Assembly (NCBI GenBank): GCA_015660865.1
Contig: JACTUA010000006.1
Span: 87,777-151,776, forward strand
DNA from: Methanomicrobiales archaeon
Lineage (GTDB): Archaea; Halobacteriota; Methanomicrobia; Methanomicrobiales; JACTUA01
Length of the DNA: 64,000 bases
Reading direction: 5' to 3'
The position numbers and the translations under genes were made by a program. Each line of letters begins with the position of its first letter. Within the stretch, counting starts at the first letter, position 1. The notes under the pieces were generated by a model. That model made no database searches. It had not been told where the DNA came from and saw only the letters and a program-made list of their open reading frames with translations. Positions 17,441 through 55,784 of the stretch are shown here, piece after piece.

Positions 17441-17581
17441 CATCTTCAAGGGGAAAGCCACCCCTCCAACGTTATGCCCCCTTTCACACCCCTCGCAGGG
17501 AAAAGAGCCGGGCCCCAGGGAACCCGCGTAGGAGAGCAGGGTAAGCCTGAGTCCCGTTTCACCTGGACGGGAGTGCAGAAT

Positions 17582-17716
17582 GGATCCGGGCACCGTGGGG
17601 TGCTGTAGGGGATCCGGGCACCGTGGGGTGCTGAGGGAATCCGGGCACCGTGGGGGTGATGAAGGGGATCCGGGCTACCGGAGGGTGCTGAGGGAATCCG
17701 GGCACCGGGCGAACGG
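17582..17716. repeat. About 4.5 tandem copies of a 28-29 bp hairpin-containing repeat
   Basis: The units gatccgggcaccgtggggtgctg(t/-)aggg repeat head to tail at about 17583, 17611, 17639, 17668 and 17696 (the last partial). Each contains GCACC-gtgg-GGTGC. There are no spacers. Confidence 0.9.
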
Positions 17717-19948: not shown

Positions 19949-21058
19949 TTATTTGGCGATTATTTGATTCTCCTCAATCCAATTATCGATTAAATTTGGA
20001 ATGTCTTTCGAAATATTCTTTGAATCGAATTCTTTGTAGAGTTTTCCGATAATATCAGTTGGATAAATTTGATTTTTAATTCTATTATCTTTTAAGATGC
20101 ACACTTTTTTATTTAAACCAAACATGAGGCCAACTTCTAATACTATATTCGGATCAATTTCAACCTCACTCGATGACATACTTGGTGGATCAATAACGGC
20201 GATACCAAATTTAGAACCATATAGATAAGTTATTATATTATTATATACATCACCGTTAAAAACCCGATAATCAGCACGTATTCCTATCAAATTATGTTTT
20301 TTTAATACTTCGTTTATTCTAAGAAATATTTCATCGTTATGAGGATTTTTATCGAATCTCATCATTATAAATGCAATTATTTCAGGATTTTTGAACTCTT
20401 CTTTGAATAATGATAAACTATCTTGAATTTCTTTAGGAATTATTTGGAGATAAGAATCAGAAGTCAGAATGGGTTTTGGTGGTTTTACTTCAATCCCTCC
20501 CACTCCAGTTCCAATCTTTTTTGCGAAGTCGATTGACCCGTAATTAATAAAATTAACCCTTGAATGGGGTAAATCAGGACTTTTTCCAAATCTCATGATC
20601 TTCCAATAATAAATTGATTTAATTGAAATTTCAATTAAAAGTCCGTCGAATTCATTTAATTTATGTAATGAGACGAATATATTAATTTCAAATGGTAAAT
20701 CATCTGTAGTAATGCTTATTTCGTCTAAATATTTGTCACTTGCTTTTTTTCGAACCCCTCTATTTACTAATCGGTCTAAAAATGTTGAGGGGTCATCGAA
20801 ATAAAGATTTGGATGAAATTTTTTGTGGTGAAACGTTAACGATAGCTGTAAGTTTACAAAAGGATTCTCATTTTCCAAGTAATATCCATTTGAATCCAAT
20901 TCGGATTTAACTCTTCGAATGATATTTTCAATTTGTTCTACAGGTGATTTAAGTTGAAGAAAGTATTCTCCTTTAACAATAAAGTGTTCTGGTCCGTATA
21001 GCATTATGATACTATTAGAAGAAGGGAGATTTAATTTATATCCTCGGATGATCACCAA
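19949..21058 (-). CDS. AT-rich orphan protein with an unknown N-terminal region and a C-terminal nucleoside 2-deoxyribosyltransferase/TIR-like Rossmann domain (tentative)
   Basis: This long ORF sits in a block of roughly 22-38% G+C (hand counts of sampled 60-nt lines), against about 68% in the flank. The likely real start is ATG 21004, with gatataaatta about 27 nt upstream. The C-terminal motifs are IAFIMMRF, GIRADY, FGIAVID and PNIVLEVGLMFGLNKKVCIL. Confidence 0.65.
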   Translation of the reverse strand: MVIIRGYKLNLPSSNSIIMLYGPEHFIVKGEYFLQLKSPVEQIENIIRRVKSELDSNGYYLENENPFVNLQLSLTFHHKKFHPNLYFDDPSTFLDRLVNRGVRKKASDKYLDEISITTDDLPFEINIFVSLHKLNEFDGLLIEISIKSIYYWKIMRFGKSPDLPHSRVNFINYGSIDFAKKIGTGVGGIEVKPPKPILTSDSYLQIIPKEIQDSLSLFKEEFKNPEIIAFIMMRFDKNPHNDEIFLRINEVLKKHNLIGIRADYRVFNGDVYNNIITYLYGSKFGIAVIDPPSMSSSEVEIDPNIVLEVGLMFGLNKKVCILKDNRIKNQIYPTDIIGKLYKEFDSKNISKDIPNLIDNWIEENQIIAK

Positions 21059-21177
21059 CCGTTAATCGATATTGGCACTCTCAAACCTAGCATAGAGCTG
21101 GACTATGTCCAAGTTGACACTTGCGATCTACTCGAATAATATCGATATATAATGGCGAACAAAGAAAAATATCCCGG

Positions 21178-21257
21178 TCACCCCATCCCCCACTGCGCCA
21201 ACGTCGTGCGGGACGGGTCCACGTCGTGCCAGTCCCACTCGAGGGCCTTGATGATCC
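21178..21257 (-). repeat. polB 3'-end copy D (most distal)
   Basis: The minus strand reads ...IIKALEWDWHDVDPSRTTLAQWGMG-TGA. It matches copy C at 74/82 positions by hand alignment. It contains the 9-mer acgtcgtgc twice (21201-21209 and 21221-21229). Confidence 0.9.
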
Positions 21258-21322
21258 AGGAATGGTCCCCAGCAGGAGCAACAATCCAATATCACCGGGA
21301 TAATTCACAACTTCGCCGTGAC

Positions 21323-21487
21323 TCATCGCCGGGGCACATTCGCGAGGAGGATTTTTTCAATCTCCTTTAAATCCTCTTTCTTTTGCAGGACCCGGTTCTT
21401 CATGACAAGGGAAATCCGGGAAAGAACCTCGGGATCCCCTTCCTCCACCTTCTGGATGATGAGCTGGATGATATCCTCGGGAGTCAT
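21323..21487 (-). CDS. Possible 54-aa ORF, the only candidate gene in the third cassette
   Basis: The sequence is MTPEDIIQLIIQKVEEGDPEVLSRISLVMKNRVLQKKEDLKEIEKILLANVPRR*. It is below the ORF-track size cutoff and higher in G+C than the AT-rich sequence around it. No motif is recognised, and it may be a gene fragment. Confidence 0.25.
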   Translation of the reverse strand: MTPEDIIQLIIQKVEEGDPEVLSRISLVMKNRVLQKKEDLKEIEKILLANVPRR

Positions 21488-21815
21488 TCGCGAAGGGCAG
21501 CTACGTGGAACTCATGCCAAAAATGTCCCGCGTCAGCCGTATTTCACCCCTTGAAATATCTCTCGTGTATTTATGTTTTTCATCTTAATAATATATATAA
21601 CATTCTATCATTGTTAATCTCTAAAAAACGTTTAATCATCTTTTTAAGCATTTATATCGTTAATTGACGTTTAAAGATATTTTCCAGACCACCCCTCACT
21701 TTAGCCATTACCCCGCCAAGCCTTCCACTTCATCCCCCCTTATCCTGATGATATCATTGAAGGAGACTTGTCGGTTCATTCTTTAACGGTTAACGGGGCA
21801 CAATTCCGTTGTACG

Positions 21816-21899
21816 TTTTACCCCATCCCCCACTGCGCGAGCGTCGTCCGGGACGGGGCCACGTCGTGCCAGTCCCACCCGAGGGCCTCGATGATCCGG
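21816..21899 (-). repeat. polB 3'-end copy C
   Basis: The minus strand reads ...RIIEALGWDWHDVAPSRTTLAQWGMG-TAA. It matches the genic copy at 75/82 positions by hand alignment, and 2 further nt past the stop also match. Confidence 0.9.
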
Positions 21900-21989
21900 G
21901 AAATCAGGTTATTCGACATTCGAATGAAATGCATGCTGCCGACGACTTTCCTGTGATGGGATCTTTTCCCATAAAAAGATCGATATTGG

Positions 21990-22898
21990 TTATTGCCCCT
22001 TAGAATCCTGTTGACTCTTCAACATGAACTGCTGCCATTTGGCGCTCGAGAGATCCGGAAAATATCCTTCTCCTGCCTTAAAGTTTCCGGCGATGAAATG
22101 CCCACCATGACTTGGGGCGATCACGGAATCAAAAAAGTAGTCTTCGTAGTAGTTCCATCTCCAAGTATCATAGCCGTCAAGCCATCCGTTCTGGACTTGA
22201 ATTCGAAGCAGAATAGAGACCGAATCCTGGGTGCCCGGATAGTACCCATGATCCCCCGTTAAATCCGCATAGATCCAGGTAAATTGCATGCTTGAAGTAT
22301 TCGTGTATTTCTTCAATTCTGAGCCCTGCCATGCGGTCGTTTCCTCAACTGGGCTGGGTGGGGAAAAAGAAAACTTTGGAAGGATGATGGATTCATTGCC
22401 AACAGGATAAAGCGTATTTGCGTAATAAGACGGTGATTGAAGGTTATGCGCATTATCGTGTAGCTCGACTCGGTAGGTCTCATTCGGCCAGGAATCTGCA
22501 TGAATGCGGACAAACCAGAGTTCATTAGGGTTGGAAAAGATTTGCTTCCCATTTATATAGCTCAAATTCCATTCAGGAGGGGACGTGGTGAAAGAAATTA
22601 ATAATCCCTCTTTCTCGAAGTCTTCGGGCACGATCGACCGGTTTCCTATCATAGGTCTGCCATTCTTCACCGGGAGCGGAATATAAAAAGTGGCATTTTG
22701 AAGGGGACCATAGTTCTGAATATACAGATCGTATTCAAAACCCTTGGATAGAAATTCAGGAAATACCTCATTGCTTGGCAACAGTGGCATGAGGACGAAG
22801 AATGCGTAACCAAAAATCACGGAGGAGAGGATCCAAAGGATGAGTACAAGGAGGACTGCCGCAAGAATGGCTAATATGACGTTCCTTGAGGAAGACAC
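21990..22898 (-). CDS. Cassette ORF X: signal-anchored extracytoplasmic protein of unknown function
   Basis: 302 aa with a GTG start. The N-terminus has positive charge followed by a TM helix (RNVILAILAAVLLVLILWILSSVIFGYAFFVL). The remainder is aromatic-rich and carries six N-x-S/T sequons (NAT, NRS, NLS, NET, NES, NTS). G+C is clearly below the core genes. Confidence 0.6.
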   Translation of the reverse strand: MSSSRNVILAILAAVLLVLILWILSSVIFGYAFFVLMPLLPSNEVFPEFLSKGFEYDLYIQNYGPLQNATFYIPLPVKNGRPMIGNRSIVPEDFEKEGLLISFTTSPPEWNLSYINGKQIFSNPNELWFVRIHADSWPNETYRVELHDNAHNLQSPSYYANTLYPVGNESIILPKFSFSPPSPVEETTAWQGSELKKYTNTSSMQFTWIYADLTGDHGYYPGTQDSVSILLRIQVQNGWLDGYDTWRWNYYEDYFFDSVIAPSHGGHFIAGNFKAGEGYFPDLSSAKWQQFMLKSQQDSKGQ

Positions 22899-22969
22899 AA
22901 TGAACCACTGGGTCGGGTTTTCAGGTACACTTTCAATATGCTATTATGCTCGGGCCGCCTTGAATCTGT

Positions 22970-23009
22970 CTATCCCATCCCCCACTGCGCGAGCGTCGTC
23001 TGCGACGGG
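22970..23009 (-). repeat. polB 3'-end copy B (short)
   Basis: The minus strand reads ...PSQTTLAQWGMG-TAG. It matches copy C at 36/40 positions, and homology ends after about 40 nt. Confidence 0.85.
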
Positions 23010-23043
23010 TATGCGGATTGCGAGTCCGCTCCAGAATTACTCC

Positions 23044-23967
23044 TTATGAAGGTTCGATCCCCTGCAAAGGTGTTGCCACAGATCTCCCTATGTATTCCTT
23101 GACAGCCGCGAAATTCTCTTCGGTGCAGATAAGGAGGATAATCGGCGATATGGATTTGCTTATTGGCGTGAGCCACGGTTCCGTTCCGATCCGTATTGTC
23201 AGAGAATCGGGGTGAACCTCTACAGCCCTGATAGCACTCCATGGGATGTGGGTGGACTCCCTGGTGAGAAATGCCAGCGAATCAGACATCTCCCCCCAGG
23301 CCATCAGGTAAAGGCCCCACTGCTGGGCTACCGTTAGGAAATTCCTGAAGGATACCCCATCTTCGTCCACCCAGTATTCCGCGAGGCCGGATCCATCGGC
23401 AGCCTCCCTGATGGTGTAGAACATCCTGCCTGCGTTCAACATGTAGGCGACGAGAACTCCCAGGCATACCGCAAGCCCCCAGTCTTTCATTTCCTGATCA
23501 ACCGCGCTTATCGCGATGAGATACATAATAGTCCCAACGAGGCCGGCACTGAGAAGAATCGGAATCCCCAGGCCGAATATCACCACGAGGGACGAGGGGA
23601 TCATCGCTATTCGCCACCTGATGGCGTTACTCTTCCTGTTCCATCCCCGTATTGAGGGAGCATCAGGTTGAACAGGGGCCGGTATGGTCCACCCCTTCAT
23701 GTCGGTGAGCGAGTGCTTCGTGGTTATTGCTACTCCCGCTCCCCCGATAGCATCCATGGCGAGCCTCTTCTTCCACCCCCGATGCAGAAGGTAGATTGCA
23801 GCACCGAAAACGAACAGAAGACCCAGGAGGGGATTGAAGAACAAACCGTCTCCGGTCAACAATTCAGGCCCGGCAAGAAGGAAGGTCAATAGGATTGTGA
23901 TGAGAAGGATCCCGACGATGGCGAGTATCTCGATTTTTTCAGGGGTTTTCCAGCCTGGCATGCTCAT
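23044..23967 (-). CDS. Cassette ORF Y: polytopic membrane protein with a C-terminal soluble domain, function unknown
   Basis: 307 aa with about five hydrophobic segments by eye, followed by a ~110-aa soluble tail (IPWSAIRAVEVHPDSLTIRIG...LLICTEENFAAVKEYI). An attttataa TATA box lies about 25 nt upstream of the ATG. Confidence 0.6.
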   Translation of the reverse strand: MSMPGWKTPEKIEILAIVGILLITILLTFLLAGPELLTGDGLFFNPLLGLLFVFGAAIYLLHRGWKKRLAMDAIGGAGVAITTKHSLTDMKGWTIPAPVQPDAPSIRGWNRKSNAIRWRIAMIPSSLVVIFGLGIPILLSAGLVGTIMYLIAISAVDQEMKDWGLAVCLGVLVAYMLNAGRMFYTIREAADGSGLAEYWVDEDGVSFRNFLTVAQQWGLYLMAWGEMSDSLAFLTRESTHIPWSAIRAVEVHPDSLTIRIGTEPWLTPISKSISPIILLICTEENFAAVKEYIGRSVATPLQGIEPS

Positions 23968-24031
23968 GGGAAGATGGGATGGGTCACGTTATAAAATATC
24001 TATCAGGAGATCCCGGAGGCGGAGATCTCTC

Positions 24032-24115
24032 TTTTACCCCATCCCGAACTGCGCGAGCGTCGTCCGGGACGGGTCAACGTCGTGCCAGTCCCATCCCAGT
24101 GCCTCGATGATCCGG
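24032..24115 (-). repeat. polB 3'-end copy A (functional gene terminus and candidate attachment site)
   Basis: This is the last 27 codons plus the TAA of polB (...SRIIEALGWDWHDVDPSRTTLAQFGMG*). It is the reference for copies B, C and D. Confidence 0.9.
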
Positions 24116-26478
24116 CTGATGGGCTGCCGGATTGTCTTCTCGAGCATCGTCTCCCAGTCGACGACGAACTCGGGGGGCACCTGGTCGCCGTACTCGAAGC
24201 AGAGGACATCGGTCTTCGGGTATTTGGCTTTCACGTTCCTGATGTAGATACGCTTCGGCTTGGACCCTTTTTTGAAGTCTGCTTTGAGGTGCATGTTCGC
24301 GTACTCGGCACCCCGCCTGTGGGCATCGTTCGTCTCGTACTGGTCGAGGGCCTTCTGGATCCCGCCGGGGATTCCCACCTCGTCAAGGCTGTACTTCCCA
24401 GCCCGGAATTTCGTGATGATAGCCCCAAGGTACGCCTTCACCTCGGGGAGGCCTTCTCCCTTCAGGATCTTCTCGATGACGGTCCGCTGGACCTCTTTCG
24501 TGATCTGCGGGTAGTCTGAGCGTCTGAGCTCGAAGCCAACAATATCGATCTCGTCCACGTCCTTCCCCTCCTTCCAGACGAGGTGCCCGGCGTAGCGCTT
24601 CTTCTTCCCCGCCTGGAAGAACCGCCGGTAGATCTTCTCAAACTTGATGGAGAAGTAGTGGGAGTCGGCGGAAAGTGTCTTCTTCGCGAACTCACAATAG
24701 CTCGCGTTCAGCGCGGCCTCGATCTTCCGGGCAGTCTCGATGGTCAGGGCCTCCTCCATCGGGGGAATCTGGACCATGCAGGAGTCGGTGTCGCCGTAGA
24801 TGACATGGTAGCCCAGGGACTCGATGACCGTTCTCGTGTGCTCGATGATGGCCCGCCCCACCGAGGTGACCGCTGCCCCGATTTCCCGGTCATAGAGCCT
24901 GAACCGGGCATAGCCCGAGACCCCGTAGTAGGTGTTCATGATGACCTTCAGGACGTTCTGCTGGAGGTCGTAGAGGATGAAATCAGGGGACCCGAACGGG
25001 TATCCGTTGCGGAGAGTCTTCTTCTGCTCCCGCTCCTTCAGGAGCTCGGCGATGATGGACCGGGTGAGCCCGTCGGGCTCGCGCCGGAAGCGGACCCCGT
25101 TCGGGGCCCGGAACTCCCCGTTCGGGTCCTTGGTCTCGGGCGAGGCGTTGATGGTCATCATCGCCATGGGGTACAGGGACTTCAGGTCAAGAACGACGAC
25201 GTTCTCCTTCACCCCCTTCGACGGGTCAAAGACCGTCGCTCCCTCGAACTCCTCGGCGGCGGCGAAGCCCTTCGACGGGAGGACAAACCGGCCGAAGGCC
25301 TTCCGGAGGATGTAGATGTCTATCACCTGGGAGGAGTTGAGGGTGCGGTCCAGGGGGCACCCGACGTAGCGGGCGATCTCCCGGTAGAACTCGATGATGT
25401 GGTTCTTCCGGTTGATGGCCACGCAGAGCTCCACGTCCTTCCTGTTGTAGTCCACGAGCCGGGCCGGGTCCTCCCTCCAGAGGGAGGAGAGGGTCCCCGT
25501 GAACCGGATCTTTGTCTCCCCGACCTCCTCCTCGGCTACGGCGTCCAGCCGGTAGGACTCCCGCTGGCTCCCGTGCATCTTCTTGTACGCGTCCAGGAGG
25601 TCGAAGAGGGCGCGTCCACGAAGCGCGGTCCGCTCGGTCCGCTCCTCCAGCCGCGCGAGGCAGGTCGGGTTCACCCCGAGGCGCTCCATCCGGGCGATGA
25701 TGTACGGGATATCGAATTCGAGGAAGTTCCAGCCCGAAAGGACGTCGGGGTCGCGTTCCCTCATGTAGCGGGCGAGGCCGAGGAGCATCTCCTTCTCGTC
25801 CTTGAACACCTCGACCGTGATCCTCTCGTCTGCTGGGGAAATGACCGGGACCGTGCCGGAGGCCGCAAGGAGGAAGCTCGTGTAATCGTCCTGGAAGGAG
25901 TCCCAGCATGTGATGGCGATGATCTTATCCCGCTCCGGCTCGGGGAACCCGCGCTCGTCCTCGCATTCGATGTCCATCATGCAGGTGCGGGCCGGTGCGT
26001 TCACCTCGGCCGCGCGGAGGGTGTGGTAATCTGCCTGGAGGGACGGGGCTTCGACGCCACCGGTAAGCCCATTGTCGATGAGGAACCGTGTCGCAAACGG
26101 GATATCGGCCTCGTAGTGCCTGTATCGTTCACGGTAATCCCTGACGTCGGTCGGTCTCCTGGTATAGAGCCTGCAGAGGGTCTCGCCCCGGATCGAGCGG
26201 TATGCATGGTCCGGATCGACCTCGACCCCGGAAGGGATGGGTGTCGCCGTGACCTGCTCCGCGGGGGCATAGAAGTACGGGCGGAAACCGGTCACCTCGA
26301 GGTGGACCGCCGAGCCGTTCCCGTCCCTCCCGAAGATGTGGATGACCGGCCCCTGGGGGCTGTTCGTGTACTCCACCTGGTTGATGGCGATGCGGATGCC
26401 GGAGTAATCGGCAAGGGTGCGGGTTATGGTACGCTTCTCAAAGCCCGGAACGACGGTCAGAGCCGCTCCCTCACCCAT
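24034..26478 (-). CDS. polB: Family B DNA polymerase
   Basis: The start is placed at MGEGAALTVV (ATG 26476-26478, overlapping the mdh stop). Exo motifs are DIECE and NFLEFDIPY. Polymerase motifs are SLYPMAMM, KVIMNTYYG and YGDTDS. Confidence 0.95.
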   Translation of the reverse strand: MGEGAALTVVPGFEKRTITRTLADYSGIRIAINQVEYTNSPQGPVIHIFGRDGNGSAVHLEVTGFRPYFYAPAEQVTATPIPSGVEVDPDHAYRSIRGETLCRLYTRRPTDVRDYRERYRHYEADIPFATRFLIDNGLTGGVEAPSLQADYHTLRAAEVNAPARTCMMDIECEDERGFPEPERDKIIAITCWDSFQDDYTSFLLAASGTVPVISPADERITVEVFKDEKEMLLGLARYMRERDPDVLSGWNFLEFDIPYIIARMERLGVNPTCLARLEERTERTALRGRALFDLLDAYKKMHGSQRESYRLDAVAEEEVGETKIRFTGTLSSLWREDPARLVDYNRKDVELCVAINRKNHIIEFYREIARYVGCPLDRTLNSSQVIDIYILRKAFGRFVLPSKGFAAAEEFEGATVFDPSKGVKENVVVLDLKSLYPMAMMTINASPETKDPNGEFRAPNGVRFRREPDGLTRSIIAELLKEREQKKTLRNGYPFGSPDFILYDLQQNVLKVIMNTYYGVSGYARFRLYDREIGAAVTSVGRAIIEHTRTVIESLGYHVIYGDTDSCMVQIPPMEEALTIETARKIEAALNASYCEFAKKTLSADSHYFSIKFEKIYRRFFQAGKKKRYAGHLVWKEGKDVDEIDIVGFELRRSDYPQITKEVQRTVIEKILKGEGLPEVKAYLGAIITKFRAGKYSLDEVGIPGGIQKALDQYETNDAHRRGAEYANMHLKADFKKGSKPKRIYIRNVKAKYPKTDVLCFEYGDQVPPEFVVDWETMLEKTIRQPISRIIEALGWDWHDVDPSRTTLAQFGMG

Positions 26479-27337
26479 TGAGCCCCCGGGAGAGATCGGC
26501 GAGGAATGCGGCGGCCTCACGGAGATGGGCCTCCTCCCAGGAGTCCAGGGGCCATTCCTCGATCCTCACGATCCCCTCCCTCCCGAGGCGTGCCGGAACC
26601 CCCAGGGAACACCCCGAGAGGTCGTACTCTCCGTCGAGCATGCAGGAACAGGGAACGGGTTCCTTCCCTCCTTTGAGGATCGCCTTCACGAGCCGGGTCA
26701 GGTGCCAGGCCGGCCCGAAGATGGTACCCCCCTTCCCTTTTATGATCTCCATGGAGGCACCCCTGAGGGTAGTGAGGATATTCTCCCTGGCCGGTGTGTC
26801 AACGGGATTCCTGAGGGGGTGGAAAAGGGGGACCTGGTGCTCGCCATGCTCCCCCAGGACATATGCGGAACCGGTGATCCCGCTCTCGTGGAGGATGCGC
26901 CTGAACCTTGCGCTGTCCAGCTGCCCGCCGAAACCGATGCACCGCTCCCTGGGAATCCCGGCCTTCTTCGCAAAGAAGTAGTTCATCAGGTCCATGGGGT
27001 TTGCCACCGTGACAAGGATACCCGAGAACCCCTTGAGGAGCGGAAGGCAGGATTCGGCAATGGGGAGGTTCACCCCGAGCAGGTCTGCCCGTGTCTTGAC
27101 GGTGGGGCTCCGGGAGATCCCTGCCGCATAGATGCAGATATCGGCATCCCGGATGGCTGCCGCATCGGCGGAGACGCTGATATCGAGGCCGCAGTCCTGG
27201 ATATCGAGGACCTGGGCCGCGAGGAGGGGGAGGTTCACGTCGTAGAGGACCAGGTCGTCCACGAGCCCCTCGATTGCCGAGACAAATGCGATCTCCCCAC
27301 CGATCCTGCCAACCCCGATGACCGCGACGCTGCTCAT
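26471..27337 (-). CDS. mdh: Malate (L-2-hydroxyacid) dehydrogenase of the LDH-like family
   Basis: 288 aa with an N-terminal Rossmann VAVIGVGRIGG, VTVANPMD, GGQLDSARFR and catalytic LGEHG. Confidence 0.9.
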   Translation of the reverse strand: MSSVAVIGVGRIGGEIAFVSAIEGLVDDLVLYDVNLPLLAAQVLDIQDCGLDISVSADAAAIRDADICIYAAGISRSPTVKTRADLLGVNLPIAESCLPLLKGFSGILVTVANPMDLMNYFFAKKAGIPRERCIGFGGQLDSARFRRILHESGITGSAYVLGEHGEHQVPLFHPLRNPVDTPARENILTTLRGASMEIIKGKGGTIFGPAWHLTRLVKAILKGGKEPVPCSCMLDGEYDLSGCSLGVPARLGREGIVRIEEWPLDSWEEAHLREAAAFLADLSRGLNG

Positions 27338-36038: not shown

Positions 36039-36689
36039 ATGGAGACTGCAGATCCGAAGGAGATCCTCTCCATCCTCCTCGATTTCAAGGGGGAGCGGGT
36101 GAAGGAGTTCTGCGAGAGAAGGATCAGGGACAGGATCACCCCGCATGGGATCTTCGCGGAGCTCTCGGCAGGTCTCGACGAGATAGGAAGGGGATTCGAG
36201 GGGAAGGGCGGGACCCGGTACTTCACCTCCGATCTCATCGTCTCGGGCCGGAACATGAAGCGGGCGCTTGCGATCCTCAGGCCCCATTTCCCGAAGGGCG
36301 GGAAGGGTCGGGGGCTCGTCATCCTGGGGACCGTGAAGGGAGATGTCCATGACATCGGGAAGATGATCTTCTCCGTGACGCTCGAGTCAAATGGCTTCTC
36401 CTGCATCGACCTCGGCGTGGACGTGGACCGGGCCATCTTCGCCGGGAGTGTGGCCAGCCAGAGGCCGGATATCCTCTCACTCTCGGCTCTCCTCTCCTCC
36501 ACCCTCCCTGCGATGGGGGAGGTGATCGAGGAGCTGAAACGCCGCGGGCTCCGCGAGGATGTGAAGGTCATCGTCGGAGGCCACGCCGTCACAGAGGAGT
36601 TCGCCCGCGAGATCGGGGCAGATGCGTATGGCAGGGACGCCATCGACGGGCTGAAGAAGTGCCTTGCCTTCGTCGGGGCGGGTACATGA
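36039..36689 (+). CDS. Cobalamin-binding (corrinoid) protein of the MtxC-like family
   Basis: 216 aa with an N-terminal helical cap and a B12-binding Rossmann domain carrying the DxHxxG motif (GDVHDIGKMI), then SALLSST and GG(H)AV. Confidence 0.8.
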   Translation: METADPKEILSILLDFKGERVKEFCERRIRDRITPHGIFAELSAGLDEIGRGFEGKGGTRYFTSDLIVSGRNMKRALAILRPHFPKGGKGRGLVILGTVKGDVHDIGKMIFSVTLESNGFSCIDLGVDVDRAIFAGSVASQRPDILSLSALLSSTLPAMGEVIEELKRRGLREDVKVIVGGHAVTEEFAREIGADAYGRDAIDGLKKCLAFVGAGT

Positions 36690-37627
36690 GGATCGGTATC
36701 CTCTACGCCGGCCCATTCGGCGAGCAGATGATCAACCACATCTCCCTCTCGGGTTTCGGCGATCGGATTGTGGCCGTGTACGAGCTCACGCCGGAGAAGG
36801 TTCCCGGGGGAGGGCGGTCGGGAGACATCTGGGAGAGCCCGGAAGAGTTCCTTCCCGCAGATCTGCCGGAGGCCCGATGTGACCTCCTCCTCGTCCTGGG
36901 AGTCCAGGGATCGCTGGGGGTGCTTGTTCCGGGAGTTGCGAAACGCTGGGGGGCCCGTGCGGTTGTCTTTGCCATCGATGATCGGGGAATGGTCCCCGAT
37001 GCAAGGAGATCCATAGAAGACGAGCTCTGCGAAGTCGGGATCCACGTCGAGTTCCCGGAGCCGTTCTGCGTCCTTGCCGGGAGCAGGAATGGCCTCGTCA
37101 GGGAATTTGCCGGGAGGTTTGGAAGGCCGCACTTCCGGGCAATGGTCGATCCATCCTCGCACCGCATCACGGCGATCACGGTCCTGCGCGATACCCCCTG
37201 CGGCACCGGTTCCTCCACGGCGAAGAAGCTCGAAGGACTCCCCTGTGATCCTGACCTCATCCTCCGGCGATGCTACGAGGAGCATCACAACGAGGGAGCA
37301 GATCACTGCTGCCTCGCAGAGATGGATCCCCTCTATCCGGTCATGCAGGAGGCAGGCGATCTCCTGAAGGATGCGGTCTTCTCTGCCTGCGGCCTCCCAA
37401 CGACGAGGGATCTCATCCTCGGCATCCTGGCCGATGACGGGGAGATCACCGTCGAGGACCTGAAGGCGAGGGTCGTCTCGACACAAGCCCGGCGGCAAGG
37501 GGAGGAGACGGGATGCACTGCCGGGCGGACCGTGGACCTCTACCTGGATGAGCTCGCCGAGGAAGGTAAGGTGGAGAGGACTGGGGGTGGGAGAGTGAGG
37601 ACTAAAATAAACAAAAAGCCTTGCTGA
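36686..37627 (+). CDS. DUF166-family protein with a C-terminal winged-helix-like extension
   Basis: The start is placed at ATG 36686 (an ATGA overlap with the corrinoid protein). MRIGILYAGPFGEQMINH, FPEPFCVL and VLRDTPCGTGSSTAKKLEG match my memory of DUF166/COG1810. The tail DDGEITVEDLKARV...LDELAEEGKVER looks like a wHTH. Confidence 0.55.
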   Translation: MRIGILYAGPFGEQMINHISLSGFGDRIVAVYELTPEKVPGGGRSGDIWESPEEFLPADLPEARCDLLLVLGVQGSLGVLVPGVAKRWGARAVVFAIDDRGMVPDARRSIEDELCEVGIHVEFPEPFCVLAGSRNGLVREFAGRFGRPHFRAMVDPSSHRITAITVLRDTPCGTGSSTAKKLEGLPCDPDLILRRCYEEHHNEGADHCCLAEMDPLYPVMQEAGDLLKDAVFSACGLPTTRDLILGILADDGEITVEDLKARVVSTQARRQGEETGCTAGRTVDLYLDELAEEGKVERTGGGRVRTKINKKPC

Positions 37628-37629
37628 AC

Positions 37630-37841
37630 GCTCTTGGGGGCTTCGCCCCCGCCGCTCTGGCATCCCCCATTGCGATAGCCTGTTCAACCTCGCTTCGAAT
37701 GGATTGATCTCCCCGAGAATACCCCCTTATCCTGCTCGGGGTGCCCTTCAAGAGGCAGAAGATCCTGTGGAAAAACCGCCTGCACATGCCCCGGTACACG
37801 ACGGGGGGTGCCCGCGGCGGGGGCGGAAGTCCCCCGAGAGC
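37630..37841. mobile_element. 212-bp MITE-like element with ~40-bp imperfect terminal inverted repeats (copy E1)
   Basis: The left end is gctcttgggggcttcgcccccgccgctctggcatccccc. The reverse complement of the right end is gctctcgggggacttccgcccccgccgcgggcacccccc. E1 begins 3 nt after the DUF166 stop and is homologous along its length to 54881-55093. Confidence 0.55.
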
Positions 37842-37892
37842 CCAACAGTATTCGAATTCGAAGATGAGTCTCGTAAATGGTTTTTTACCTAT

Positions 37893-39527
37893 TTATTCCG
37901 CGGCGGGATGCCCATTTTTCCGATACTCCGTGAAGCAGAGCTCCTCCACGAAAAGGTCCTGGAAGCCCGGGTCCTGCTCGAGGCTCACGTGGCTGATCTC
38001 TCCGGCCAGCTCCCCGGCCCGCCTGCGGCACTCGCGCGAGAGAAGGGTCAGGGCGGCCCCCTCGATTGAAGCATTTCCCACCTTCTCAACCCTTTCGGGA
38101 GGGATACCGGGGAGCATCCCGATCCTCCCCGCATTGACCACGTCTATGTAGGTCCCGAAAGCTCCCGCGAGGAAGAGGCGGGAGAGTTCCCCTGCCTCGA
38201 TCCCCGCCCTCTCAAGGAGGACCCGGGCACCTGCCGCTACCGCTGCCTTGGCGAGCTTCAGGTTATCGAGATCGCTCCCGTCGAGGTATACGCCCCTCTC
38301 CCCTTCTACCACGGAGAACCGCCCGATCCCGCCGGTGAACTTCCCGGTCCAGTCGACGATGCCATGCTCCAGGAGCTCCGCGAGCACGTCGATGAGCCCG
38401 GATCCGCAGATCCCGATGGGCGGGACATCTCCGATGGTCTCATACGCGATCCGTCCACCGGGTTCTATGGCCAGGCGCTGGATCGCCCCCTCCACCGATC
38501 CGGTGCCGCATCCGATCCCGGATCCCTCGAAGGCCGGGCCCGAGGCGCAGGAGGCGACCATGATGCCATCACGGTTCCCGATCGCGATCTCTGTATTCGT
38601 CCCGATATCGATGGCCATGGTCACCTCCTTTCTCGCGTGCATTTCGGTCGCAAGGATCATGGCCAGGGTGTCGGCCCCGACGAAATGGCCGATGAGGGGG
38701 AGGGCATGGATATTCCCCGCCGGATTGATGGCGATCCCGAGCTCGGATGCTCCGGTGTCCACCGCGCCCGTGGAGACCGGTTCAAAGGGGAACGCACCCA
38801 GCCCTTCCACCTGCCGCCCGAGGAAGAGGTCCCGCATCACGCTGTTCCCCGCAACCGTCATCTCGTAGATATGATCCGGGCGGACCGCACCGCAGGAGAG
38901 GAGGTTGTTGACGGCGCCGATGACCGCATTCTGGAGGTGTTGTGCCCCCCGGCGAGTCTTCATCGCATACCGGATGCGGTCGATGACATTGTCCCCGAAC
39001 CTTATCTGGGGGTTCAGGACCGATGCCGAGAACCTGTCGGGGTTCTGCCCGTCCTCAAGATCCAGCCAGCGCATGGCGAGGGTGGTTGTCCCTATATCGA
39101 GAGCCACCCCGAAGATCTCCCCCTCATAGGGGCCGAGGACCCTGCCACCCCAGGAGACCCTGAAGGGACCCTCCTTCCCTGCCCGCTTCACGAGGGGGGA
39201 GATCGGAACTGCAGGGCGCACCCCTTTTTCAACGATGGAGTACCTCGGGTACAGGGGAAGTTCCACCCTGAGAATCCCGTCTGCCCTCGTGATGGTCGCC
39301 TGGCACGCGAGGCGCAGCAGGGGATCGCCCAGGAGGGACTCTTCCGCCCCGGTCTTCGGGGAGAGGAGATCCGGCCTGTCGATTCGGATCGCACAGGCAC
39401 GGCACTCTCCCCTGCCCCCGCAGTGGGCTGTCAGGGGGGATCCCGTCTGCATGAGGTGGTGGAGGATCGTCCTTCCCGTCTCCAGTGGAATCCTTCTCCC
39501 ATCGGGGAGGATGATCATCTCACCCAT
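37893..39527 (-). CDS. Reductive activator of corrinoid proteins (RACo-like; 2Fe-2S ferredoxin plus ASKHA ATPase)
   Basis: 544 aa with an N-terminal plant-type ferredoxin motif CGGRGECRAC...C and then ASKHA phosphate motifs (ALDIGTTT, AIDIGTNTE, GSGL). Confidence 0.75.
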   Translation of the reverse strand: MGEMIILPDGRRIPLETGRTILHHLMQTGSPLTAHCGGRGECRACAIRIDRPDLLSPKTGAEESLLGDPLLRLACQATITRADGILRVELPLYPRYSIVEKGVRPAVPISPLVKRAGKEGPFRVSWGGRVLGPYEGEIFGVALDIGTTTLAMRWLDLEDGQNPDRFSASVLNPQIRFGDNVIDRIRYAMKTRRGAQHLQNAVIGAVNNLLSCGAVRPDHIYEMTVAGNSVMRDLFLGRQVEGLGAFPFEPVSTGAVDTGASELGIAINPAGNIHALPLIGHFVGADTLAMILATEMHARKEVTMAIDIGTNTEIAIGNRDGIMVASCASGPAFEGSGIGCGTGSVEGAIQRLAIEPGGRIAYETIGDVPPIGICGSGLIDVLAELLEHGIVDWTGKFTGGIGRFSVVEGERGVYLDGSDLDNLKLAKAAVAAGARVLLERAGIEAGELSRLFLAGAFGTYIDVVNAGRIGMLPGIPPERVEKVGNASIEGAALTLLSRECRRRAGELAGEISHVSLEQDPGFQDLFVEELCFTEYRKNGHPAAE

Positions 39528-54109: not shown

Positions 54110-54835
54110 ATGCCCGAGATCGCAATCGTCCTCGTCGAGCCCCTCCACGAGGGAAACGTGGGCTTCGCCGCCCGGGTGATGAAGAACTTCGGGTTCTCCG
54201 ACCTCGTCCTCGTGGACCCCTGTCCTCTGGGAGACCTTGCCCTGGCATGCGCCATGCATGCCTCGGACGTGCTGGAGAATGCGCGAAACCTGACCATGGA
54301 GGAGGTGTTCTCCGAATACCAGCTCATCGTCGCAGCTACCGGCGCGTACTCCAAGTCCGTATGCCGATCAACGCGGATGCCCTACTACTCCCCCAGGGAG
54401 ATCAGGGAACAGATCCGGACTGTCGATGGCAGGGTTGCCATCCTCTTCGGCCGGGAGAACAGGGGGCTCTCCAACGAGGAAGTCAGGAGGTGTGACCTCA
54501 TCTGCACCATCCCCGCATCTCCTGACTATCCTATCCTGAATATCTCCCATGCCGTGGGGATCGTCTGCTACGAACTCGCGGATCTTCCCCGTGGGCTCTA
54601 CCAGCTCGCGGAACGCGAGGAGATGGAACGCCTCTACGAGCACCTCGATACGTTCCTGGACCGGATCGATCACCCCGATTTCAAGCGGAGGAATACCCTC
54701 CTCATGGCCAGGAGGATCCTGGGGAGGACGCGCCTCACCACCCGGGAGGTCTCCACCATTCACGGGATACTCAGAAGGGCGGAGTGGCATATGGAGGAGG
54801 AGAATCCGGAGGAGAAGAAGGGGGTGGAGGAGTAA
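54110..54835 (+). CDS. SpoU/TrmJ-type RNA 2'-O-methyltransferase
   Basis: 241 aa with VLVEPLHEGNVGFAARVMKNFG, FGRENRGLSNEE and LNISHAVGIVCYEL, the SPOUT class motifs. Confidence 0.8.
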   Translation: MPEIAIVLVEPLHEGNVGFAARVMKNFGFSDLVLVDPCPLGDLALACAMHASDVLENARNLTMEEVFSEYQLIVAATGAYSKSVCRSTRMPYYSPREIREQIRTVDGRVAILFGRENRGLSNEEVRRCDLICTIPASPDYPILNISHAVGIVCYELADLPRGLYQLAEREEMERLYEHLDTFLDRIDHPDFKRRNTLLMARRILGRTRLTTREVSTIHGILRRAEWHMEEENPEEKKGVEE

Positions 54836-54845: not shown

Positions 54846-54880
54846 ATTCCTTTAGAAGAGGATCTTAAGGATTCCACAAC

Positions 54881-55093
54881 GCTCCTGGGGGACTCGCTCT
54901 GCTCGCCCCCGCCGCTGCGGCGTCCCCCGCGTGGGGATAGGCCTGTCCGGGAGCCTGGCAGTTCCTAGTGGGATCTCGAAAACCTCGTGCACAAACCCCA
55001 TACTCCGGGGGATGCCCGTGCGGCGGGGTGGCGTAGCCTCGCAACTTCGTCGCTCGAGGTCGGTTTTTTACGAAACCTCCCTCCCCCAAGAGC
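54881..55093. mobile_element. 213-bp MITE-like element (copy E2) carrying an embedded 45-bp-module homolog
   Basis: The termini gctcctggggga...tcccccaagagc form an inverted pair. The internal blocks gcccccgccgctgcggcgtccccc and gggggatgcccgtgcggcgggg are also inverted. Positions 55031-55079 are the reverse complement of a homolog of the 1104-1193 unit. Confidence 0.55.
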
Positions 55094-55229
55094 ACACCAT
55101 GACGAGGATTAGGGGAATGGAATGACGTTTCTCGCTCTTGTGTGAACCTTAAGAAGTATCTGGTGCACAAGTATGTGGAATGCCGTGCTCATCCCATTTC
55201 AGACCATATAGAGGGGGGGTCGATCCCTC

Positions 55230-55784
55230 GTGATTCTCGTCGACTGGCAGATCCGCGAGGCCATATCATCAGGCCACATCGGTGTGAAACCGTACGATCA
55301 GAAGTTCGTCCAGCCCAACTCCCTGGACATCCGCCTCGGGGACCACTTCGTCTGGTACGAGGAAGGAGACGAGGTCATCGACCCGTACGACCGGAAGAGC
55401 ATCACCGCGAGGGTGGGTGAGATCCATGCGGAGTCCTTCGTCATCGGGCCGGGCCGCTTCATCCTCGCAGAGACCCTGGAGGAGATCACACTCCCCGACG
55501 ATATTGTCGCCTCCATCGAGGGGAAGTCCTCCATCGCCCGCCTCGGGATTGAGCTCCACCAGACCGGGGGGTGGATCGACGCGGGCTTCTCGGGGACCAT
55601 CACCCTTGAGATGTGCAACGTGAACCAGCGGCCGGTCCGCGTGTACGCCGCGATGCCAATCGGACAGCTCGTATTCTACACCACCGAACATGCCGAGGAG
55701 CCTTACAATATCAGGAAGGCTGCCAAGTACCTCCACCAGCACCAGGCGACCCTCTCCCGGTACCACGAGAACCCGAAGCGGTGA
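55230..55784 (+). CDS. dcd: dCTP deaminase family (possibly bifunctional dCTP deaminase/dUTPase)
   Basis: 184 aa with [31 protein letters not shown] and a conserved tail. The start is GTG. Confidence 0.9.

Follow-up and report, generated by a model that had tools for sequence, protein, structure and literature searches.

The repeats described below resemble four kinds of known element: (i) REP/REPIN/BIME repeats, (ii) MITEs derived from DDE transposons, (iii) the non-coding ends of IS30- and IS21-family elements of Bacteroidales, and (iv) archaeal PATEs. REP- and MITE-type repeats are normally lineage-specific, and repeats of the REP/REPIN type, with their long persistence by vertical descent, are seen as a feature of bacteria. 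REP families consist of hairpin units that occupy intergenic positions as head-to-head heterodimers or as solos and that persist (PMC3733652). RAYTs are not known in Archaea, in which only IS200-type TnpA has been seen (PMC6006769). DDE-derived MITEs are small, non-coding, multicopy elements with inverted ends and presence/absence polymorphism, and PATEs, derived from IS200-IS605, are small hairpin-bearing non-autonomous repeats of Archaea that are presumed to act as single-stranded DNA.

The window analyzed here, a 64,000-nt stretch of contig JACTUA010000006.1 from a Methanomicrobiales archaeon, contains two elements, E1 (37630-37841, 212 nt) and E2 (54881-55093, 213 nt), whose sequences match their earlier description. 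Both belong to a previously undescribed archaeal palindromic intergenic repeat family. They are probably two old copies of a non-autonomous, non-coding family of Methanomicrobiales that resembles MITEs, REPINs, and BIMEs, acts at the DNA level, and is mobilized in trans. The first-pass annotation had proposed a non-autonomous MITE/REP-like family, and the proposal is supported by the existence of more than two copies, by arm-free sites in relatives, and by significant similarity.

Genes assigned by Pfam in the window include those for an archaeal ThrRS editing domain, PcrB, RACo, corrinoid proteins, and DUF166, and the best protein matches are to Methanomicrobiales MAGs at 85-91% identity, which assigns the window to an uncultured methanogen of this order. 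E1 lies between convergent genes encoding a DUF166 protein (36659-37627, plus strand; PF02593) and a RACo-type corrinoid activase (37893-39527, minus strand; Pfam RACo_C_ter, Raco_middle, and Fer2). E2 lies between co-oriented genes for a SpoU-family methyltransferase (54110-54835, plus strand; Pfam) and a dCTP deaminase (dcd; 55230-55784, plus strand; Pfam). Only short spurious ORFs overlap the elements, which at sizes of 212-300 bp have no coding capacity.

Elsewhere in the window, a low-GC island (19949-24115; 38-50% GC versus ~64% elsewhere) adjoins a family-B DNA polymerase gene (24034-26520, minus strand) at the gene's 3′ end. The island holds four direct 84-nt repeats (21176, 21816, 22968, and 24032) that are 63-92% identical, the last being the polB 3′ end itself, and looks like the product of serial integration at that end. 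One of its ORFs (19949-21058) has a CAP12/Pycsar-type TIR domain, and two further ORFs are without a Pfam match. A separate ~28-31-nt repeat, GGGGTGCTGAGGGAATCCGGGCACCGTGGGG, occurs in four copies spaced 27-57 nt apart at 17570-17712, between epimerase and GyrI-like genes.

In both E1 and E2, a poorly conserved core is framed by two inverted arms, each a copy of one ~50-nt module. The arm reads (G)AC-GCTCYT-GGGGG-(variable hairpin tip)-CCCCC-GCCGC-NNN-GGCAUCCCCC. As a unit of ~50-85 bp, it comprises a short conserved leader, GCTCYT, the G5/C5 hairpin, and GCCGC-NNN-GGCATCCCCC; a GNGATAG box often comes next, and the hairpin tip varies from 3 to >200 nt among arms. A covariance model of the arm (CM R1), trained on 91 arms that all come from other genomes, matches exactly four arms in the 64-kb window, the next best match having an E value of 0.53. 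The 91-arm alignment contains 19 invariant positions, and its variation is confined to the hairpin tip and the 3-nt linker. Two subtypes are distinguished: alpha arms, which have the linker and the GNGATAG box, and beta arms, in which a GACTWCC tip is followed by GTCGTGTACCGG. E1 and the related loci L054 and L034 are alpha+beta heterodimers.

The outer left flank of E1 (37612-37629, plus strand) is a AAAAGCCTTGCTGAAC-like sequence whose homologue in other arms is the conserved stretch of 15-25 nt ahead of GCTC. This flank overlaps the final codons of the DUF166 ORF. The left arm (37626-37671, plus strand; alpha; CM R1 64.9 bits, E 3e-11) reads AAC-GCTCTT-GGGGGC-TTC-GCCCCC-GCCGC-TCT-GGCATCCCCC and is followed by a GCGATAG box. 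The variable core (37672-37799), which has a GCGATAGCC box in its left part and GGAAAAACC...TGCACA in its right part, contains an insertion when compared with its L054 orthologue. The right arm (37800-37845, minus strand; beta; CM R1 42.4 bits, E 1e-6) reads GG-GCTCTC-GGGGGAC-TTCC-GCCCCC-GCCGC-GGGCACCCCCC-GTCGTGTACCGG and is nearly identical to beta arms in L054, L034, L098, and L010. Its outer flank, TTTACGAGACTCATCTTC[GAATTCGAA]TACTGTTGG on the minus strand (37846-37880), matches the outer part of other beta arms, for example, GTAAAGGATTCATCTTCCTATTGG in L010. A T6 run just beyond E1 (37881-37886, plus strand) could serve, judged by its sequence, as an archaeal terminator signal for transcripts from the plus strand. 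The neighboring DUF166 ORF is 10-14 aa longer than its 308-312-aa orthologues and ends in an AT-rich tail (..TKINKKPC*; 37588-37627) that these orthologues are missing; its stop codon appears to be displaced into the E1 flank.

E2 is enclosed by an outer inverted repeat, whose left copy, CTTAAGGATTCCACAAC (54864-54880, plus strand), is homologous to outer parts in L010, L117, and L118, and whose right copy, TTGTGTGAACCTTAAG (55138-55153, minus strand), lies 40 nt from the arm. The left arm (54877-54931, plus strand; alpha; CM R1 47.6 bits, E 1e-7) is followed by a GGGGATAGGCCTGTCC box, and the variable core (54932-55003) has a GATAGG box and then GAAAACC..TGCACA. The right arm (55004-55097, minus strand; CM R1 37.4 bits, E 1e-5) contains a 54-nt hairpin-tip insertion (55029-55082; ~55 nt in the CM alignment) with a T6 run inside it (55064-55069). 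The sequence of this insert is found in the right arm in L117 but in the left, opposite arm in L118 and L119. A CCTTAAGAAG box within the right outer repeat (55138-55153) is kept upstream of dcd in L117 and L118, and a box of the form GAACCTTAA(A/G)A(A/G)G lies ~75 nt before dcd in three element-bearing genomes (window 55138-55230; L117:2900-3000; L118:2900-3000). The right end of E2, with its CCTTAAGAAG box, may thus be a candidate dcd promoter.

The similarity of these two GC-rich elements, asserted by the first-pass annotation, holds statistically. Their mean column identity is 70% (MAFFT), their local alignment scores 42 against 18.9 ± 2.5 in 500 dinucleotide shuffles (maximum 31; z = 9.2), and the four arm matches to the covariance model have E values from 3e-11 to 1e-5. 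The ~40-bp terminal inverted repeats (TIRs) described at that stage stand as inverted ends but not as a simple TIR, each end being a hairpin-bearing ~50-nt composite module. Similarly, the near-identical length of 212 and 213 nt, once read as the sign of a discrete element, is a coincidence, as orthologous and paralogous copies measure 160-250 nt. The original boundaries at GCTC...GAGC must also be moved: comparison of arm flanks reveals conservation that continues ~12-40 nt beyond them, which places the true elements at ~37612-37880 (E1) and ~54864-55153 (E2). At these extended boundaries, the elements occupy nearly the entire intergenic spacers. The earlier failure to find a clear target-site duplication (TSD) at the E1 and E2 flanks is repeated here, as none is definable at any boundary tried for E1, E2, or other doublets, in which the palindrome fades out and the exact termini are not definable from flank comparison. 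Nor is a TSD derivable by setting E1 and E2 against empty sites, because the flanks are too diverged. At only ~70% likeness, E1 and E2 give no sign of recent movement in this genome.

Both elements fold into a very long hairpin, with energies of -111 kcal/mol for E1 (z -6.4) and -108 kcal/mol for E2 (z -3.8), and 0 of 200 shuffles reach the stability of either fold. Two head-to-head arms with a fast-evolving core between them form the near-perfect hairpin or cruciform of 200-300 bp in the window. No one fold was obtained for all subfamilies, the G5 and C5 tracts pairing promiscuously. Resemblances to HDV-like and other ribozymes, a tRNA-like minihelix, attC, and a CRISPR-repeat mimic were considered and rejected, as none fits an insert of variable length or has tool support. 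The search for tRNA and tmRNA returned none.

An exact-pattern scan for GCTCYTGGGGG N3-25 GCCCCCGCCGC, with one genome per species, recovers at least 116 loci. The matches listed come mostly from Methanoregula, Methanoregulaceae, and Methanomicrobiales MAGs, with several per genome (at least 10 in CAVRIL01), and at least 110 distinct arms were extracted among them. The initial annotation was to fall if only two copies existed and relatives had no empty sites; instead, dozens of Methanomicrobiales genomes contain at least 110 distinct arms between them, and both window sites have arm-free counterparts in relatives. Among the matches listed, convergent spacers are favored over divergent ones (23 versus 10), and copies sit in unrelated housekeeping contexts in either orientation relative to their neighbors. 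The scan of IMG/VR gave 2 matches only, so the family is not virus-associated; PLSDB plasmids searched by BLAST with the bacterial module gave no match, and the literature on the motif strings and on MITEs in Methanoregula held nothing relevant.

The module occurs in three architectures: (i) inverted doublets of 160-250 bp (L003, L018, L034, L054, L082, L088, L117, L118, and L130), (ii) solo arms (L010 and L098), and (iii) Methanoregulaceae MITEs of 170-530 bp with 16-bp TIRs, GGCTYTGTWGAAAYC, in which the module is carried as cargo, 35 nt in from one end. The lineage closest to the window has doublets of the E1 and E2 kind. Three of the six TIR-bounded sister copies inspected have 8-bp TSDs (GAAATACC, CTTTCTTC, and GTCCCGC). 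ISL3-family elements have ends of the type GGCTCTTCG and an 8-bp direct repeat (PMC6305408, Table 3). The resemblance of GGCTYTGTWGAAAYC to these ends, together with the shared 8-bp duplication, may offer a lead to the ISL3 family. The family as a whole is like DDE-derived MITEs in its small, non-coding, multicopy elements with inverted ends and presence/absence polymorphism, and its TIR-bounded subfamilies add ISL3-like TIRs and TSDs. In contrast, E1, E2, and the other doublets have neither the outer GGCTYTGTWGAAAYC TIRs nor a detectable TSD, no parent IS was found for them in the loci examined, and in the TIR-bounded subfamilies the module is cargo and not terminus. A typical Methanoregulaceae TIR-bounded copy is also present in L009 (contig CAYUDX010000039.1, labeled Spirochaetia), probably an archaeal contig that was mis-binned.

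For both E1 and E2, filled and arm-free orthologous counterparts exist. Around E2, the gene order Topo-PcrB-SpoU-dcd-ThrRS is kept, and the length of the SpoU-dcd spacer differs among relatives. With the window dcd as reference, the spacer measures 394 nt in the window, where it holds E2; 390 nt in L117 (dcd identity 90%), with an orthologous element; 506 nt in L118 (87%), with an element present; 443 nt in L121 (78%), with variant arms; and 5 nt in L124 and L125 (77%), with no element. L118 and L119, both metagenome contigs, have identical dcd proteins, yet a 55-nt indel separates them within the hairpin-tip insertion of an arm (L118:2440-3000 versus L119:400-880), which shows recent length instability of hairpin tips. 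In L121 (3579-4533; also L122 and L123), flavin reductase and MatE genes lie between dcd and thrS with at least three further arms around them, which suggests arm-associated gene rearrangement.

At the E1 site, the window, L054 (DUF166 identity 85%), and L130 and L131 (81%) all have arms. L128 (83%), L129 (80%), and L132 and L133 (76%) are arm-free, with DUF166|RACo spacers of 32-81 nt. The arm covariance model gives no match at the arm-free E1-site and E2-site loci. A GATAG-box remnant is kept at the “empty” E1 sites of L128 and L132, so loss as well as gain is possible there. The core differs by large indels even between orthologous copies such as those of E1 and L054.

A mobilizing partner was sought around the copies. 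The first-pass annotation had reported no transposase in the window, which is borne out, and none stands beside other copies either: no transposase or other partner gene was found in the window or within 2.5 kb of ~85 archaeal copies. Clustering of ORFs within 3 kb of the module returns only TPR, PAS-kinase, and ABC families and bacterial IS genes, with no protein that recurs beside the module, and a Pfam scan of 150 neighboring ORFs, in a summary that conceals singletons, returns housekeeping genes. With IS30, IS21, and IS110 proteins as phmmer queries, the single archaeal match is an IS110 gene in L040, and no IS30 or IS21 gene is found in the archaeal loci. No parent autonomous IS with the same ends was found in the 133 loci or the window. 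No tnpA or tnpB recurs near the copies examined, nor does a Y1 family recur near arms in 8-kb blocks around pattern matches, although the Pfam summary would conceal single ones. The family resembles the archaeal PATEs as a set of small hairpin-bearing non-autonomous repeats but differs from them in that the ends of IS200/IS605 elements have directly oriented hairpins and no TIRs, whereas the arms here are inverted and have no tnpA or tnpB nearby.

The same module is found in Bacteria. In Bacteroidales it scores 46-59 bits with the arm model and includes the GGCATCCCC extension, which is absent from the search pattern. Within IS30-family elements (NCBIfam NF033563) of three diverged lineages (L061/L115, L008, and L079), it is located between IRL TGAAGATTCCAAATCGAAGTGCAAAAC and the transposase gene, and in L031 it directly follows istB of an IS21-family element. 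These elements share with the archaeal repeats the same ~50-75-nt module, and the E2 outer repeat TTAAGGATTCCACAAC resembles the Bacteroidales IS30-type inverted repeat TGAAGATTCCAAATCG at 13 of 16 positions by eye, with no TSD and no IS30 ORF in the archaeal loci. Unlike the archaeal doublets, they carry a single module copy inside an autonomous IS, in opposite orientation to the nearest terminus. The module is also found next to a zincin-like (ArdC-type) gene on a Terracidiphilus (Acidobacteria) contig (42 bits) and next to a DNA methyltransferase gene in Paraburkholderia tropica (54 bits). Pattern matches in Streptomyces and other GC-rich bacteria fail the arm model and were discarded as chance.

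Also in Bacteroidales, IS110-family genes stand beside the module in L021, L047, and L064. Genes for RNA-guided transposases of this family lie 70-230 nt from it in L040:746-2305, L047:317-1430, and L064:6388-7711; the distance is 230 nt in the archaeal L040, a Methanoregula MAG. IS621 and ISPpu9 target REPs, and by analogy IS110-family elements may target the module or the elements in which it resides.

The near-identity of the arm in Archaea and Bacteria is unlike normal REP or MITE repeats and counts against the explanation preferred here. A more far-reaching reading is that the ~50-75-nt arm is a self-contained cross-domain cassette, in which a G5/C5 hairpin of free tip length is clamped by invariant single-stranded GCUCUU and GCCGC..GGCAUCCCC. 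It would be read by a trans-acting enzyme or by a universal one (RNase P, given a minihelix-like fold) and would have been embedded repeatedly in unrelated bacterial (IS30, IS21, and ICE-like regions) and archaeal (ISL3-like MITEs and REPIN-like doublets) elements. We regard this reading as possible but doubtful; if true, the arm would represent a hitch-hiking element or mobile-element accessory module of a new class, beyond the end of one transposon family.

In the explanation that we favor, the arm would be a cis-acting recognition module, most likely read as folded single-stranded DNA. The GCTCTT and GCCGC motifs stay adjacent at any tip length, which argues for recognition of a folded single strand and not of duplex DNA. 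Recognition would fall to a transposase or nuclease whose gene lies elsewhere in the genome and which would copy arms or doublets into intergenic DNA, where inserted copies would persist vertically and then decay. As a side effect, operons can be split; E2, for example, stands between SpoU and dcd, genes whose spacer in a relative is 5 nt. The elements may also provide transcript-end hairpins, T-runs, and possibly a new promoter.

Whether the elements act as DNA or RNA bears directly on this explanation. E1 and E2 might instead be genes or cis-elements of a structured RNA (a 3′-UTR stabilizer, a terminator hairpin, or a small RNA), kept for their RNA fold, with the repeats forming a paralogous RNA family. 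Their extremely stable folds (z -6.4 and -3.8) and the preference of copies for gene 3′ ends agree with such a role, as do AT-rich boxes upstream and T6 runs in or after the elements. The distal arm-hairpin stems, moreover, covary strongly across copies (CGG/CCG, CAUGC/GCAUG, and GGCA/UGCC), and the U before the first hairpin G and the GCC after the hairpin loosely resemble an RNase P minihelix substrate. Yet in the best-conserved subfamily, compensatory change affects only 2 of 34 pairs and the covariation term (+1.3) is unfavorable. G·U pairs number 14 and 15 on the two strands, of ~650 pairs, with no asymmetry; doublets fold equally well on either strand; and copies take both orientations relative to neighboring genes. 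Large core indels divide orthologous copies, and the AT-rich boxes lie at inconsistent distances from the arm, for which reason a promoter for an arm RNA was dropped. Rfam at gathering thresholds has no match in the window, in either element, or in 14 related loci, and at E up to 10 its only matches are at chance level. The G·U symmetry, the equal folding of the two strands, the scant covariation, and the unconserved core together favor a DNA-level, trans-mobilized element. The structured transcript-end RNA that the initial annotation had offered as its alternative therefore has no positive support from strand asymmetry, covariation, or core conservation between orthologues, and a structured RNA is, in our judgment, unlikely.

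At the DNA level, the REP/REPIN system supplies a sub-case of the favored explanation with a named enzyme, namely, a single-copy HUH tyrosine transposase (RAYT-like or IS200-type TnpA) that would spread arms and doublets via a single-stranded hairpin and a 5′ tag. Shared with REPs are a short GC-rich hairpin unit whose unpaired flanks are conserved, long hairpins formed by two different subtypes head to head, solo units, strictly intergenic copies near gene 3′ ends and enriched in convergent spacers, vertical inheritance with long persistence at orthologous sites, and adjoining IS110-family elements. In contrast, the tag here is (G)AC-GCTCYT and not GTAG or CGTC, and the G5/C5 stem is unlike those of the described CGTC families, which have 8-9-bp AT-started stems (PMC3733652). 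Arms are longer (50-85 nt) with highly variable tips, doublets measure 160-300 bp versus ~100 bp, and the arm is common to both domains, unlike the lineage-specific REPs. The host here belongs to the Archaea, in which only IS200-type TnpA and no RAYT class has been seen (PMC6006769), and no Y1 gene turned up near arms in a Pfam summary that conceals single ones. Finally, the TIRs and 8-bp TSDs of the sister subfamilies indicate a DDE enzyme, and together these points make a REP/REPIN system quite unlikely. Present mobility could also be lacking altogether, if the elements were relics, or palindromes that had grown locally, and owed their retention to a role as safe landing pads or sites of recombination for other mobile elements (e.g., the IS110 family) or for genome rearrangement. 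In accord with this, the module has an IS110-family transposase gene as its neighbor in Muribaculaceae (L047 and L064) and in the Methanoregula MAG (L040), several arms of L121 flank extra genes that separate dcd from thrS, and E1 and E2 are old, mutually diverged copies. IS110 adjacency is confined to a few loci, however, the sister subfamilies have TSDs, and a multicopy, dispersed family with a conserved consensus in many genomes needs a spreading process, all of which leaves this last reading very improbable.

As probable old copies of a trans-mobilized palindromic family, E1 and E2 extend to methanogenic archaea without a known RAYT an analogous system of arms, heterodimers, solos, stable orthologous copies, and gain and loss. 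The near-identity of the module to that in the IS30 and IS21 ends of gut Bacteroidales hints at a cis-acting function conserved across very different mobile elements, and the protein that reads the arm could reveal a new mechanism of mobilization or regulation. The family also splits operons (SpoU-dcd) and breaks assemblies, and it is worth masking and annotating in Methanomicrobiales MAGs.
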